Virus record (IMG/VR): IMGVR_UViG_3300043434_000700 | Coordinates: 3,642 to 67,641 of that record | DNA length: 64,000 nucleotides | Source: a virus | Reading direction: 5' to 3' (one strand) | Shown here: in pieces, positions 2,548 to 63,517 of the stretch | Layout: each line of letters opens with the position of its first letter | Numbering within the stretch: the stretch's first letter is position 1 | Program-made: the position numbers and the translations under genes | Notes under the pieces: model-generated | Told to the model about the DNA's origin: nothing | What the model saw: the letters and a program-made list of their open reading frames with translations, nothing else | Database searches by the model: none

Positions 2548-3749
2548 GGTAATGGATTCGCTCTCAAATACTCGTCATGAGCCTTTGTATATTCTGCGTT
2601 TTGTCTTGCAACAAATGCGGCATCACTTTCTGCTGGCGTCTTTGTAACTGCTCGTCTTGCTCTCTCGCCTTCATCGTGTGCCTTGTCAAATAACTCGTCT
2701 GTGTTTACAGTTGTACCTGGAGTTGTAGGGGCCGTTGCTTGCTGTTCAAAATTCATACTTTTAATTTTGGCATGTACAGCTCGTGCCCACTCTTTGTAAA
2801 TCTCAAATGCTTTTGCTCTTGGCGGCTGTTCTGCTACCGCAATCTGCAACCACGCTTTAAATTGTTCTTCAATTAGCTCCTCGGCTTTATTAACTACTGA
2901 ATTAACTGCCGCAGGGTCAACATCAGAACTATGTCCAGATAGCAATCTTGTTAGTGTTTGATTGCTTACCAACAACGGTGGGCTTGCTAGCATCGCTTGC
3001 ATTTGTTCTGTAGACAAATTCAAATACTTTTTCTGAATACCAGTTTGTCCTGTAATCATGCTAATCAACACAAGTTCTTCTAAGTTGTCTCTTAGATCAA
3101 CGTTTGGATTCAATGATCTTAAATCAGGACTTTGTTGTGAGAATAAAACTTTGTCAAGTTGTGCGCTTGCAGTCTTAAAATTTTCTAATGCGTCTGGATC
3201 AACTTCTGCTGTTTCAGCGTCCTCTTGTTGGGTTTGGATAAAAATAACTGTAGCGGCTACAATCATTGATATAGCATTTAGTGCAGGCTCAACTTCCATG
3301 CCAATAGAAGCACTACCAGTACCACCAAGAATAGCATCAAACAATAATTTAATTTCGTTGTTAGCACCAACATTACTTGACAATACTAAGCGTTCAATGT
3401 CAGCACGATTGGATTTAATAGTAGGGCCAACTTGTGCAATATCAACTTGAAGTTGATCAGTAGCCGCAACTTTATCAGCTGCCGCCAGTGTCTGCTGATA
3501 CATCATTTTTACTGGTAGAGGTACAGAACCAGAATCGATTTGGGCTAGCTGATTACCTAAACGTTGCATAACACGCGGTCTTGTGGTATTTGTAATAGCA
3601 TCTGCAAACTTACGCAAAGCCGCATTGCTACCACGCAAGGCACGAATGATACCAGTTGGGCCATCGCCGCCGGCCATACTAGTTACTTTAGAAACTAAAT
3701 TATCTAAGAACCCTTCATCTAATTGACGCTGTAGGTCATTAACTTTCAT
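2544..3749 (-). CDS. hypothetical, probable internal head protein
   Basis: 401-aa ORF starting MKVNDL..LDEG; overlapping start/stop with neighbours. Confidence 0.7.
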   Translation of the reverse strand: MKVNDLQRQLDEGFLDNLVSKVTSMAGGDGPTGIIRALRGSNAALRKFADAITNTTRPRVMQRLGNQLAQIDSGSVPLPVKMMYQQTLAAADKVAATDQLQVDIAQVGPTIKSNRADIERLVLSSNVGANNEIKLLFDAILGGTGSASIGMEVEPALNAISMIVAATVIFIQTQQEDAETAEVDPDALENFKTASAQLDKVLFSQQSPDLRSLNPNVDLRDNLEELVLISMITGQTGIQKKYLNLSTEQMQAMLASPPLLVSNQTLTRLLSGHSSDVDPAAVNSVVNKAEELIEEQFKAWLQIAVAEQPPRAKAFEIYKEWARAVHAKIKSMNFEQQATAPTTPGTTVNTDELFDKAHDEGERARRAVTKTPAESDAAFVARQNAEYTKAHDEYLRANPLP

Positions 3750-59382: not shown

Positions 59383-60276
59383 ATGGATAACTCAAACCCA
59401 CTAAAACAGCCAATTAAGCAGCCTGTTGCCAACCCATTGGCACAATACTATCGTAAGCCTGGCACTTATATTGAACTACCAAGTGGTGGACGTTTTTATA
59501 ACACAACACCAAAGCTAAGTGACACTGGCGAATTGGCTGTATACCCAATGACTGCCAAAGATGAACTTGCGCTAAAGAATCCAGACGCGTTGTTAAACGG
59601 CGAAGCACTAAAACAAGTTATTGCTTCAGTATGCCCTGACATTGCCAATGTATCAGAAATTCCAGCGCCTGATATTGATGCTATCTTAGTTGCCATGCGT
59701 ATGACCAGCTATGGCGATGATATGGAGCTTGACGTAACCCATGGTTGTGAAGAAAGCGGTGGCAAGTCACAAAGAGTTACAGTTGGATTAGGCAGTGTGT
59801 TATCAACATCACGTGCTATTCCTGAAACATTAGGTACAGTAACATTAGCAAATGGCGTAGTTGTACAGCTAAAGCCATATACATTAGAAGCACAAAGTCG
59901 CTTACTTCGTGTGCAATTTAACACAATGCGCCAGTTACAAGGTGCAGAAGCCAACGAAAACTCTACCATTGAACAAAAAGCAGATATTGCCAATCGCGGG
60001 TATGATCAGTTGGTTGCACTAAGTCAAGATATCCTTGCCGCTAGTATCACAGTTGTTCGATTACCAGACGGTGTTGAAGTAACAAATTTCAATCACATTT
60101 ACGAATGGGTTAAGAACTTAGATCGTGCAAGTAACGAACGTCTTGACGAGGAAATTAAAGCATTTGGCAAGTATGGTATCACTCGCACATTAGAAGTAAC
60201 TTGCGATCATTGCAAAAACAAATTTACTACTGATATGCTATTTGATCCCACAAGTTTTTTCAGCGTCGGCTCTTGA
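59383..60276 (+). CDS. 26: baseplate hub / tail assembly chaperone (gp26-like)
   Basis: LPSGG, PMTAKDE...PD.L.NG, D.DAIL.A.R..SYG, C..C, FDPTSFF. Confidence 0.78.
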   Translation: MDNSNPLKQPIKQPVANPLAQYYRKPGTYIELPSGGRFYNTTPKLSDTGELAVYPMTAKDELALKNPDALLNGEALKQVIASVCPDIANVSEIPAPDIDAILVAMRMTSYGDDMELDVTHGCEESGGKSQRVTVGLGSVLSTSRAIPETLGTVTLANGVVVQLKPYTLEAQSRLLRVQFNTMRQLQGAEANENSTIEQKADIANRGYDQLVALSQDILAASITVVRLPDGVEVTNFNHIYEWVKNLDRASNERLDEEIKAFGKYGITRTLEVTCDHCKNKFTTDMLFDPTSFFSVGS

Positions 60277-60494
60277 GTCTAGGACTTGATCGAAACAAAA
60301 TTAGACGTTTCATCGAAGGCATTGAAAACGAGTCAAGAGCCGTAATCAAAGAAGTATCTATGTTAAGTGTATGGGGCGGCATAAGTCCACAAGAAATTTG
60401 GAACATGACTCACGAAGAAAGAAAAGTGTTAAGTGAAGTCATTAAAGAACACACAGAAACTATGTACGGCAAAAAGGGTATTGCTCGTCATTAA
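60246..60494 (+). CDS. gp51-like ORF, probably reached by -1 frameshift
   Basis: GGIS..EIWNM..EER pattern; no ATG or SD near its 5' end (only TTG 60273); frame open from 60246 across T TTT TTC. Confidence 0.65.
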   Translation, partial: SHKFFQRRLLSLGLDRNKIRRFIEGIENESRAVIKEVSMLSVWGGISPQEIWNMTHEERKVLSEVIKEHTETMYGKKGIARH

Positions 60495-61122
60495 TAGCCA
60501 TTTGTTAAGCTATCTTAGTAGAGCGAATACTTCGCTCTCGAATTTCGTATCGCTTCGCTCAACTCATTCAGTTTACTATAACCTATTTTTTTAGATTTAA
60601 CACGATTTACTATGATACTTGTGTTGTTTCTTAATACATGAACTACATAATGAATACTTGACCTGATGCTTCAGTCACACTTAGCCGTTTTACCGGCTAA
60701 GATAAAAACACTTGACCCGAAGTCCAATGCCACATTCAATTACAGCAACTACTTAAAGTTAGGGCGGTCACGCTGTACCCTTTTACGCTTTTCTTATTAT
60801 GACGCTACTGCACACACCCAATTGAAATAACGTGTGCAATATGCAGGTTGTAATAGTTCACCATTGCCTGCTCTTTCTAGCTTTACGTATACTAAACTCA
60901 GATCTTTTCAAGCAATTGATCTACGTCCTGTGAAGGATAGTGAGTGTTAGTCTCCGCTACCGCACGGAAGTTCCTTCCCCAGCGCAACCCTGGTGCCTGG
61001 TTTTATGGGTGTCATAGTATCGGCGACACAAGCCTATCAGTAGTAAATGAGTCTGGGGGAGTTAGCGGTTTACGCAGGAAGTATAAGGATTTATCTGTTG
61101 AACAGATGAGTTAACCGTGTAG
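60495..61122 (-). ncRNA. candidate large structured ncRNA or origin region
   Basis: 628 nt with no ORF of 60 aa or more, between convergent genes; about 9 stem-loops. Confidence 0.5.
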
Positions 61123-61548
61123 TTAAAGTTTGTCTTTGATATGATTTTTATGTACTTTTAAGTTGATAATGCCGTTATAGTAGTCTGCTGATTCAAGTAC
61201 TTTTCTGTCAAATTGTTCTTTTGCTTCTATGTAAGAGCATACAGCTTTTGCATTGCAATAGTGCAGTATCTCTCTTTTAAATTTATCTGGGCCTAGTTGA
61301 GCTAAGTCTGCCAAAAGTTCTACAGATGAGCCATAATATGTTTGCCAGTCGGATTCAATCTTACTTTTGATCTTCTTCCGCTTTTTTGTACCATTCTTTA
61401 GTTTAACAACCCGGTATGTGGTTTTAGAAAACTTTGATAGCTTCTTCCCCACATACTTTCGGTTGTTAGTTAGGTTTGTTATAAGGTACACAAACCCAAC
61501 GCAGTCATCGGGTAATGTGTCTACAACTTGATCGTTGTAAAACCACAT
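61123..61548 (-). CDS. stand-alone GIY-YIG (Seg-like) nuclease domain
   Basis: GFVYLITN...KYVGKK, W..YYGS, FKREIL, E..EQF and YYN motifs. Confidence 0.75.
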   Translation of the reverse strand: MWFYNDQVVDTLPDDCVGFVYLITNLTNNRKYVGKKLSKFSKTTYRVVKLKNGTKKRKKIKSKIESDWQTYYGSSVELLADLAQLGPDKFKREILHYCNAKAVCSYIEAKEQFDRKVLESADYYNGIINLKVHKNHIKDKL

Positions 61549-61733
61549 TACTTGGCTGCTAACGCTTCTTTCTCCGCTGTAATCTCTTTACGGCGTTCCT
61601 TGATAGCTTTAGACATTTCCTGTAGTGCTTTACGAGCACGAGCGGCAGCGGCCTTAACGCCTTTACCTGCAAATTTTTCGTTTTCAGCCTTGTATGCTTC
61701 AAACTGTTCTAGTAAAATTTCATGATTTGTCAT
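61548..61733 (-). CDS. histone H1-like (Hc1-type) small basic protein
   Basis: EKF..KGVKAAAARARKALQE..K..KERRKEI. Confidence 0.7.
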   Translation of the reverse strand: MTNHEILLEQFEAYKAENEKFAGKGVKAAAARARKALQEMSKAIKERRKEITAEKEALAAK

Positions 61734-61741
61734 AATGTTCC

Positions 61742-63517
61742 TTAATTTTCAATGACTTGCGTATCCGCTTCAAGCATAGTGAATCCATTTTCCTTGACTA
61801 CCATAAGCACATTATTAACACGGCTTGCTAGTTCATCTCTGTGTGAGATTAAGAAAATGTTACGATTCATTTCCCGACCCATTGACTTTAGAACTGACAT
61901 GGAGTGTTCGATACCCACACTATCCATTCCAGAATCAACAAGCTCGTCAATAAACATCAAGTTCATTGGCTCAGTGAAGCTTTCATACACATCTCTAAAA
62001 CTCCAGCTCAATGCCAGAATTAAACGATTTCGTTCTCCTCGACTTAGGTTATCAAAGTCAAAACTTTGTCCTAGTTGGCTAATGTCTACTTCCAAATCAC
62101 TTTTAAATGTAACTTGGTGGGGTAGTTGTAACTTATCCAAATAGTAACTTAGTCTATGATTCAAATACGCCAAGTTCTGTTCAATAATTCGCTTTCGTAC
62201 AAATGAGTCCTTGCTTGTTAACAACTTTAACAAAAACTCTTGATGCTCAAGTAGCTTACTTACTCTGTTAATTTCATCCCAGCTAACCAGAGCTAGCGCA
62301 GTATTACGCATTGCTTCAATTTGTTCTTGATAAGGATCTTCTTCTTGGACCTTTGCATCAAGTTGCTTACGAATGTTTTCTAAGTTGTTCTTGTGAGCAG
62401 CCGCATCAGCTACGTCCTGATACTTGGTACGTGGTCGATCGCCCAAGTTGCCAATAGTTCGAACAGCCATATCAGCTTGAGCTAGATAGCCATGTTCTTC
62501 ACGAAGCGCATTAACAGTTAAGTCTACGGCGGCTTGCGCATCTGCGGCCATTTGGTCATGCTTCTCGTCATGAACATCTTGACCGCAAGATGGACATTGG
62601 TGAGCCTTGATAGATTCCAAACTCTTTTGTGCAACTGCCAGTGCATCCTGCAACTTCTTAACGTTGCTTTGGCGAGTAGCTAATTCTTTGTTGGCTAACT
62701 TAAGGCGACTTTCGTTATCCTTGTAAAGAGCCACAGCACGGTGAGCCTCTAGTTCGGCTTCAATGTCTGTGTTTTCTAATTCTGTAATAGCCGCCTCAAA
62801 TGCAGCCACGTCAGTTTCTTTCTTACTAGTCCACACACGACTGCGGCGTTCTAAGTCATCAATAGCTGATTGAACACGAGCATTACTTTCTTGCAGGGCT
62901 TTGATGCGTGACTCTTCGTCTTTGATATCATCCTTGCTTTTCTTAATGAACTCTCGAAGGATCTCAGCTTTCTCACTTAACTGAGTAATGCCCAGTAGTT
63001 CTTCAATGATGTCACGTTGCTCACCACTTTTCAAACTCAAGAAAGGCTGAGTGTAAGTGTTTAGTGCAACAAGGTGCTTGAACATTTCTGCACTCATGCC
63101 AACAACTTTTTCAATTGCTTCTTGAGTTACACGGTTCTCACCAGCACCTTCGTCTGTACCTGATTCGTTGACTTCATGATCGTCAACTAAGAATCGCAAC
63201 ACGTTAGGTTTACGACCACGTTCAATTGTATACTTGGCACCGTTCTTTTCAAACTCAACTGTGACCAACATGCCTTTGGTATTAGTTTTGTTGATAAGGT
63301 TCTCTTTACGAATGTTTGTAAGTGCATTGCCATAGATAGCATAAGACAACGCATTGACCATTGTAGTTTTACCTACGCCGTTACGAGCACCATCGCCACC
63401 TAAGTCTAAGTTGTTACCTAACACAAGAGTCAACCCATGTTGATTCATGCGGAGGCCTTGGGTAACATTACCCACACTCATAAAGTTTTTAATTGTTAGA
63501 TTGTTAAACTTAATCAA
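61742..63517 (-). CDS. 46: SbcC/Rad50-like recombination nuclease ATPase subunit
   Basis: KNFMSVG, NGVGKT, CPSC hook, LSRGE signature, FIDE and ISH motifs. Confidence 0.93.
   Translation of the reverse strand: MIKFNNLTIKNFMSVGNVTQGLRMNQHGLTLVLGNNLDLGGDGARNGVGKTTMVNALSYAIYGNALTNIRKENLINKTNTKGMLVTVEFEKNGAKYTIERGRKPNVLRFLVDDHEVNESGTDEGAGENRVTQEAIEKVVGMSAEMFKHLVALNTYTQPFLSLKSGEQRDIIEELLGITQLSEKAEILREFIKKSKDDIKDEESRIKALQESNARVQSAIDDLERRSRVWTSKKETDVAAFEAAITELENTDIEAELEAHRAVALYKDNESRLKLANKELATRQSNVKKLQDALAVAQKSLESIKAHQCPSCGQDVHDEKHDQMAADAQAAVDLTVNALREEHGYLAQADMAVRTIGNLGDRPRTKYQDVADAAAHKNNLENIRKQLDAKVQEEDPYQEQIEAMRNTALALVSWDEINRVSKLLEHQEFLLKLLTSKDSFVRKRIIEQNLAYLNHRLSYYLDKLQLPHQVTFKSDLEVDISQLGQSFDFDNLSRGERNRLILALSWSFRDVYESFTEPMNLMFIDELVDSGMDSVGIEHSMSVLKSMGREMNRNIFLISHRDELASRVNNVLMVVKENGFTMLEADTQVIEN

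Follow-up and report, generated by a model that had tools for sequence, protein, structure and literature searches.

What occupies the longest gap between genes in a phage genome fragment when no protein appears to be encoded there? The stretch of DNA analyzed here, which we term the window, comprises 64,000 nucleotides (nt) of IMG/VR record IMGVR_UViG_3300043434_000700 (positions 3,642 to 67,641) and is part of a 67.6-kb T4-like phage fragment with a completeness estimate of 20%. An original prediction, made from the sequence alone, had pointed to a gap free of open reading frames (ORFs) between convergent genes, and had proposed that it encodes either a structured RNA that partners or guides the adjacent GIY-YIG nuclease or another undescribed phage non-coding RNA. 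The gap is real. It extends over 628 nt (60495-61122) between a plus-strand ORF of 73 amino acids (aa) and a minus-strand ORF of 141 aa, and by a crude gene call it is the longest in the window, with the other three gaps of more than 300 nt all containing ORFs. Its minus strand has no ORF of 30 aa or more and its plus strand has none above 56 aa, the longer ones being 54 and 56 aa. Since stop-to-stop frames across the homologous stretch vary from 36 to 76 codons among 23 relatives, there is no conserved ORF in the gap.

We favor the reading that the gap contains one gene for one large, compact non-coding RNA of ~527 nt that would be transcribed from the minus strand, over readings in which it is a homing landing site, the partner of an RNA-dependent nuclease, a cis-regulatory leader or not an RNA gene at all. 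This would be an autonomous RNA common to phages of freshwater Burkholderiales and to integrative mobile elements of those bacteria, and we regard it as reasonably probable that such an autonomous RNA is co-transcribed with the nuclease operon. The analyses that follow show its conserved sequence and structure, its boundaries and its genomic associations, from which we infer co-transcription, action in trans and independence from the nuclease.

An orphan Rfam motif forms the first third of the RNA

A cmscan search of the whole window detected a single Rfam family, RF01718 (Polynucleobacter-1), at 61034..60891 on the minus strand. The match scores 91.9 bits (E 2.3e-18) against a gathering cut-off of 37 bits and includes all 141 positions of the model (1-141). 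RF01718 is a catalogued orphan motif without an assigned function. In the table of Weinberg et al. (2010), Polynucleobacter-1 is marked "y" as an RNA, "y" as cis-regulatory and "?" as a switch, and its setting is given as Burkholderiales and fresh water or estuary (PMC2864571). The match accounts for 144 of the 527 nt of the RNA. For this portion the claim of an undescribed non-coding RNA falls on a ground that the original prediction had itself named, a strong hit to a described Rfam family. That family covers the 5' third and no more; the leader pseudoknot and the three others, both hairpins, the three-way junction, the variable linker and the double hairpin at the 3' end are all missing from Rfam.

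Other known RNAs were looked for, including several that had been suggested at the outset. No further family reached its cut-off in the window or in 18 related loci, GOLLD, ROOL, HEARO and OLE included, a permissive Rfam scan of the gap gave nothing more below an E of 4, and ARAGORN found no tRNA or tmRNA in the window. A group I intron was rejected as a candidate given that there is no Rfam match at E values up to 10 over 60300-61300, that the neighboring Hc1 gene is complete and that the next gene is convergent. A blastn comparison of the gap with cultured phages returned no match, and literature searches on structured RNAs with GIY-YIG proteins and on large phage RNAs turned up nothing on an extended form of Polynucleobacter-1.

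Covariation points to a folded minus-strand RNA

The RNA region of phage relatives is 71-97% identical to the window. Using 23 phage sequences we drew by eye a structure of 114 base pairs in 23 helices with four pseudoknots. Standard pairs occupy 96.4% of the pair cells as compared to 33-41% in slid controls, 35 of the 114 pairs exhibit changes on both sides as compared to 5-10 when slid (none of 500 shuffles reaches 35), and the covariation score is 0.209 versus 0.03-0.045, comparisons that are biased in favor of the structure because it was drawn on, and then scored with, the same kind of alignment. Across 22 phage rows, P1, P2, P3, the closing helix and P6 of the RF01718 consensus each include pairs in which both bases have changed.

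Bacterial-type copies of the RNA provide an independent check. Among 118 distinct copies, the variable base of a leader element (CUAC-N-G) and that of the P3 loop (GC-N-GUA) combine as C-G in 62, U-A in 51 and U-G in 2, with non-pairs in 3. This demonstrates a pseudoknot of the leader that extends beyond the Rfam model. We also built a covariance model of the central domain (R1) solely from 63 bacterial or metagenome copies. It matches the window at 60801..60648 over its full length (37.9 bits, with a rough E of ~8e-8), this being the sole match in 64 kb, and a sequence-only hidden Markov model search agrees on the central domain (nhmmer E 4e-4). When RNAalifold was run on the entire 715-column bacterial alignment the resulting structure was poor, which led to work domain by domain.

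Many of the G-U pairs are compatible only with the minus strand, and covariance-model matches are restricted to one strand. The proposal of a large structured minus-strand RNA, co-oriented with the gp46-Hc1-GIY-YIG genes, is borne out by conservation and covariation in relatives.

Boundaries and architecture of the full-length RNA

The full-length RNA is assigned to 60520..61046 on the minus strand (527 nt), as delimited by conservation with phage relatives, and RNA position n corresponds to window position 61047 - n. Conservation begins at ~61046 (UUACUACUG...) and stops at the terminal hairpin at 60520. All parts described below are on the minus strand. The leader CUACUG (61038..61043) is not part of the Rfam model. 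Its partner is the P3 loop at 60957-60962, and this pairing is invariant or wobble in 22 phage rows. The 5' domain that corresponds to RF01718 (60891..61034) consists of P1, P2, P3, a closing helix, P5 and P6. The P6 loop GCUU (60910-60913) forms a second pseudoknot with AAGC at 60880-60883 (overall 60880..60913), in which 2 of the 4 pairs change on both sides with the variants GCUU/AAGC, GGUA/UACC and GGCA/UGCC.

Hairpin H-A (60843..60871), GCAGG/CCUGC with a conserved 19-nt loop, is 100% paired with 2 pairs changed on both sides. It is followed by the 8-bp hairpin H-B (60808..60839), whose loop at 60820-60826 pairs with 60735-60741 as another pseudoknot; changes on both sides occur in 6 of the 8 stem pairs and in 4 of the 7 pseudoknot pairs. 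The central domain (60648..60801), which is the region matched by R1, contains a three-way junction (60744-60789) and hairpins H-C, H-D (60680-60701) and H-E (60660-60676). A variable A/U-rich linker (60577..60656) is poorly conserved and of varying length, and a similar linker is found in bacterial copies. The 3' module (60520..60570) has four scored helices, with one helix around a tandem-GA hairpin (60539-60570) and, as its last element, an 8-bp terminal hairpin (60520-60538).

Most of the nine stems singled out in the original prediction are part of this architecture. Six are covarying helices, with GTGTC/GACAC, TCCT/AGGA and AGATC/GATCT corresponding to P1, P5 and P6, respectively, and with GCAGG/CCTGC, TGCACAC/GTGTGCA and CTTAGCCG/CGGCTAAG also having covariation support. 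CCAG/CTGG has one strand in common with P2 but in a register that differs from the Rfam consensus. Two stems are lost: GGAAG/CTTCC clashes with P3 and is unsupported, while ATCTGT/ACAGAT (61093-61107) is located upstream of the onset of conservation. The reported CTTGACCYGA repeat is genuine and is read in the RNA as UCRGGUCAAG, which forms the tail of two hairpins at RNA positions 323-336 and 371-390.

Related copies reside in probable bacterial mobile elements

A degenerate pattern of the motif core located 4 viral, 38 genome and at least 119 metagenome loci, a few of which are chance matches. The genome loci are mostly from Polynucleobacter, Limnohabitans and Comamonadaceae. At least 152 bacterial-type RNA loci have a gene context unlike that of the phage locus. 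These copies are conserved for ~450 nt beyond the RF01718 motif, with the same downstream anchor blocks present at expected distances in 63 of the 68 non-redundant bacterial or metagenome copies that have enough flank, and none of 14 bacterial-type loci contains a second Rfam family. The 3' double-hairpin module is common to phage locus L003 and bacterial copies, as detected by blastn, and to the window, as judged by eye.

In the bacterial-type loci, a divergent gene for a 148-aa DUF6641 protein (also PHROG 31551) lies ~185 nt upstream of the RNA in 123 of the 152 listed; a fold search with its predicted model (pLDDT 85.5) found nothing at E <=0.001, and rows for a double-stranded RNA-binding domain with a probability of 0.18 are not trusted. 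Downstream on the same strand, 57 of the 84 loci with enough flank encode a 188-aa tyrosine recombinase that consists of the catalytic domain only, its start mostly 270-460 nt past the 3' hairpin of the RNA. Full-length integrases and DUF6876 also occur near the bacterial-type RNA. Five genomes contain 1-2 RNA copies each, and of 151 genomes sampled from the order 5 have the RNA, reference genome included. Low copy number combined with patchy presence is what an integrative mobile element would show.

Several individual copies deserve mention. Loci L012, L013, L037 and L098 have the 5' domain without the downstream anchor blocks, with L013 diverging inside P6, and these copies may be truncated, interrupted or located at an element boundary. 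One Polynucleobacter genome has two copies in the same orientation 18 kb apart (G008:C1:401229-401366 and 419563-419698), which could represent tandem elements or the two ends of one element. Additionally, in the bacterial central domain (columns ~66-100 and 178-200 of alignment A1) two similar modules of the form UGUnG...CUnA-N-CGAAAG flank an 8-9-bp hairpin. These modules vary in step (AGCG/AGCG, AUCG/AUCG, ACCA/ACCA), which is identity and not complementarity. A third strand could pair with either of them in turn, or a binding site could have been duplicated.

Transcription and candidate promoters

Contigs from RNA libraries of two studies overlap the gene, namely X10 (60518-61362), X16 (60520-61011) and X17 (60540-60797). 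The ends of X10 at 60518 and X16 at 60520 coincide with the proposed 3' end, but are not counted as a mapped end, since a single study supplied both contigs and a loose end is present in X10 at 60512.

The canonical T4 late promoter TATAAATA has no site in the window. No 7-mer is more enriched than CTAAATA in the 60-nt stretches that precede ORFs, where 7 of its 9 sites (139, 4006, 4013, 7814, 21918, 28737, 31177, 37082 and 43085) are located. Most sites are followed by a start codon within ~70 nt, and CTAAATA is probably the late-promoter box of this phage. Of 68 non-redundant bacterial copies, at least 85% (for example L011, L021 and L048) have a conserved TAAATA box ~50 nt ahead of the RNA leader. 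This box is similar to that of the phage, and no conserved -35 element accompanies it. It might be that the mobile-element RNA is switched on by phage late transcription in a satellite-like manner. Upstream of its own RNA the window offers no more than GATAAAT, and no consistent element occurs in other phage groups.

The RNA follows a phage recombination operon

On the minus strand, the genes upstream of the RNA encode a gp46-like SbcC/Rad50-type recombination nuclease subunit (61742..63517; PF13476, PF02463 and annotated relatives), an Hc1 histone-like protein (61548..61733; PF07432, E 2e-13) and the 141-aa GIY-YIG nuclease (61123..61548; PF19835, E 2.8e-32), with the Hc1 stop overlapping the GIY-YIG start. 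That an Hc1 of the chlamydial type is located within a phage recombination operon is an observation in its own right; it is 85-100% identical in nearer relatives. From the GIY-YIG stop to the RNA there is a 76-nt spacer (61047..61122, minus strand) that includes GATAAAT and the ATCTGT/ACAGAT hairpin mentioned above, and whose conservation is limited to close relatives. On the other side, the convergent plus-strand 73-aa ORF (60273..60494), which is kept in relatives, ends 25 nt from the 3' hairpin of the RNA, and a baseplate gene is also on that strand. Two phage types, L003 (6426-7346) and L115, have insertions after the RNA, ahead of the convergent baseplate module, that encode low-complexity Pro/Gly/Ala-rich proteins (306 aa in the former; 458 and 285 aa in the latter).

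As had been noted previously for the region after the GIY-YIG stop, no terminator-like site was found on either strand over 60200-61800. Given this, and given that the spacer in phages measures 5-222 nt, we propose co-transcription, with the RNA probably constituting the 3' end of a gp46-Hc1-GIY-YIG transcript and its 3' hairpins probably protecting that end. The GIY-YIG protein would then be a conserved neighbor within the recombination operon and not an obligate partner.

Several observations weigh against an autonomous RNA of this kind, in addition to the bias of the slid controls. The folding energy of the RNA strand is ordinary, with a z of -1.52 and with 9 of 100 shuffles folding as well, and the opposite strand folds slightly better than its shuffles (z -2.45). 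The evidence for structure resides in the covariance models and covariation and not in the hairpin density that had first drawn attention. The RNA-library contigs may reflect carry-over of DNA and give no strand, level or ends. Finally, the GIY-YIG gene and the RNA stay adjacent despite intervening genes that place the GIY-YIG start anywhere from 47 to 1874 nt after the end of gp46 (47 loci), which indicates some coupling beyond chance synteny.

Is the nuclease a homing endonuclease?

One alternative is that the GIY-YIG protein is a present or recent free-standing homing endonuclease whose gene inserts beside the highly conserved RNA gene, only a landing site in this view, and which cleaves alleles there that lack the endonuclease. 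PF19835, a SegE-type GIY-YIG domain, spans residues 2-128 of 141, which agrees with the earlier description of a catalytic domain essentially alone. Its predicted fold is nearest to the catalytic domain of I-TevI (probability 0.95-0.97, with a weak E of 0.13), and PHROG homing-endonuclease families match it; a search of PDB sequences with this protein gave no match at E values up to 10. Also in keeping with homing is that its identity is out of step with that of backbone genes, as would fit movement between phages. For example, L188-L218 have 81-90% identity in gp46 and 87-93% in Hc1, yet only 69-71% in GIY-YIG, while distant phages with 46-56% identity in gp46 retain 57-78% in GIY-YIG. Furthermore, nine loci have GIY-YIG homologues (63-70% identical) in a second genomic context, directly followed in eight by a membrane-protein gene, and at three loci (L121, L282 and L286) the slot instead holds a non-homologous PD-(D/E)XK nuclease of 171-173 aa (PDDEXK_15, E 2e-25). 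The latter, annotated as a phage putative PDDEXK endonuclease, is located between Hc1 and the RNA (L282:4478-4999, L121:404-919, and also L286), and its start overlaps the Hc1 stop as does that of GIY-YIG.

Against homing, the distribution of GIY-YIG is near-universal instead of sporadic, with presence at 57 of 61 gp46 loci, and the protein is strongly conserved, having 41 invariant columns across 22 homologues with the GIY and YIG segments in conserved stretches and later Arg, Glu and Asn columns invariant or nearly so. Seg enzymes carry a DNA-binding domain. No such C-terminal module is present in this 141-aa protein, whose model has a low-confidence tail (123-141) and adds a Lys-rich beta-hairpin. 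A further match of the PD-(D/E)XK nuclease, to a RusA-like resolvase PHROG, suggests that the slot has a role in recombination. On balance, we view a homing endonuclease beside its landing site as a doubtful explanation, and an autonomous RNA next to a conserved operon gene as the better one.

Does the RNA work with a nuclease?

A second alternative builds on the partnership raised by the original prediction. In it, the RNA would bind the domain-only GIY-YIG or PD-(D/E)XK nuclease, and perhaps the bacterial 188-aa recombinase, for targeting or scaffolding. We searched viral contigs with the GIY-YIG protein and gp46, which yielded 160 loci. R2, a covariance model of the 5' domain, finds the RNA in 49 of 80 GIY-YIG loci, always on the same strand and 20-222 nt past the GIY-YIG match, and at L003 and L115 the RNA begins 5-16 nt past the stop codon. 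At E <1e-4, R1 matches 31 of the 80 phage loci in a position collinear with the 5' domain. It has no match in L003, L115 or more distant phage groups, where the central parts differ or are too diverged. Of the 61 gp46 loci that extend at least 1300 nt downstream, 57 have GIY-YIG, with the RNA found at 47 and not found at 10, and 4 lack it, with the RNA found at 2 and not found at 2.

This tight same-strand adjacency, which is kept while gp46 diverges to 50% and intervening genes vary, is why the partner idea survives as a minority reading. Other features would also fit a particle. These are the restriction of the nuclease to a catalytic domain with its Lys-rich beta-hairpin, the similarly pared-down recombinase on the same strand in bacteria, a linker that evolves fast and might accommodate a variable segment, and the precedent of HEARO and IscB.

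However, the partners are separable, with each occurring without the other. The complete 141.5-kb genome of Melnitz-1 encodes a GIY-YIG homologue (55% identical) with a 148-nt downstream spacer and has no match to RF01718 or R2; five RNA-bearing bacterial genomes have no match to the window GIY-YIG protein used as a query; at least 152 bacterial-type loci have the RNA among other neighbors; at the three phage loci with PD-(D/E)XK the RNA is present in place of a pairing with GIY-YIG; and the nine loci with GIY-YIG in its other context are further cases. Five contigs of the latter type have no R2 or RF01718 match, but at 4-20% completeness they do not speak for absence. A guide-like complementarity was not identified, although no target search was made, and the bacterial recombinase is distant from the 3' hairpin in most loci and lacking in 27 of 84. 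The nuclease with an RNA partner or guide is thus unsupported as an obligate system, and we consider a nuclease-RNA particle to be quite unlikely. We have similarly little confidence in its broader form, in which the RNA would be a subunit of RNA-dependent enzymes that cut or rearrange DNA, with GIY-YIG or PD-(D/E)XK in phages and a tyrosine recombinase in bacteria, and would supply DNA recognition.

About ten of the loci without an R2 match still have, after GIY-YIG, a conserved ORF-free stretch of at least 420 nt that belongs to one of two other sequence types. The first (L202, L204, L219) and second (L207, L222, L227, L228, L234-L236) share the same gp46...baseplate synteny and are missed by both R1 and R2. 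Each may be a diverged form of the RNA or a different RNA.

Remaining alternatives

That the RNA is a cis-regulatory leader, such as a riboswitch-like 5' UTR (untranslated region) of a downstream gene, is very unlikely. The classification in the 2010 table would suggest it (PMC2864571), as would the highly conserved junction nucleotides and, at L003 and L115, a same-strand ORF ~310-320 nt after the RF01718 motif. The next gene in the window is convergent and there is no same-strand gene downstream, so the window element is not a 5' UTR element. In addition, genes downstream of the RNA differ among three phage types, and the conserved RNA, at 460-580 nt, has 3' hairpins of its own. Least probable of all is that the gap is a decayed protein gene, a set of small ORFs or a DNA element such as an origin or packaging site, for which the 54- and 56-aa plus-strand ORFs and the slightly better folding of the opposite strand could be cited, but against which stand the lack of an ORF conserved across relatives, the compensatory changes with strand-specific G-U pairs and the single-strand covariance-model matches.

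Significance and comparison with known systems

New large (>500 nt) structured RNAs of bacteria and phages are rare, and HEARO, OLE, GOLLD and ROOL have each brought unexpected biology. What is new here is the full-length architecture, the phage locus and the mobile-element setting. A 141-nt orphan motif that was filed as a possible cis-regulator becomes an RNA of ~530-600 nt with four pseudoknots and clear boundaries, placed at a fixed locus in an abundant T4-like phage group from fresh water and in mobile elements of the bacteria that these phages are likely to infect, with a strong yet non-obligate tie to small nucleases. As a guess by analogy with other large ornate RNAs, its biochemical role might be that of a protein-binding or self-assembling scaffold. 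The analysis yields constructs for structure determination, with the question being whether the RNA acts alone or with the nuclease or recombinase.

In HEARO (omega RNA) and IscB, the RNA and nuclease are obligately linked and the guide segment is known. The RNA described here resembles that system as a large structured RNA consistently beside a small nuclease gene, but RNA and nuclease are here also met separately, and no guide is identified. The T4 Seg family consists of free-standing GIY-YIG homing endonucleases, with SegB located in a tRNA gene cluster. Shared with it are a SegE-type domain beside a conserved structured-RNA gene and alternative nucleases in the slot, whereas the 141-aa protein has no DNA-binding domain and is near-universal and not sporadic. 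Group I introns can also carry GIY-YIG endonuclease genes, as does the td intron with I-TevI. There too a GIY-YIG gene is beside a structured RNA of a few hundred nt in a T4-like phage, although in the present case no host gene is interrupted and there is no group I intron match.

GOLLD and ROOL are associated with phages and prophages. Both exceed 500 nt and are described as intricately folded RNAs of unknown function (PMC12286853). Our RNA is like them in size, in its intricate fold and in having an unknown function, and differs in its hosts and in having no match to either Rfam family. The closest relative is Polynucleobacter-1 itself, for which all 141 model positions are matched and the setting of Burkholderiales and fresh water is the same. 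Beyond that 141-nt family model, the element of ~527 nt found in T4-like phages adds two domains and four pseudoknots, one of which involves the leader.

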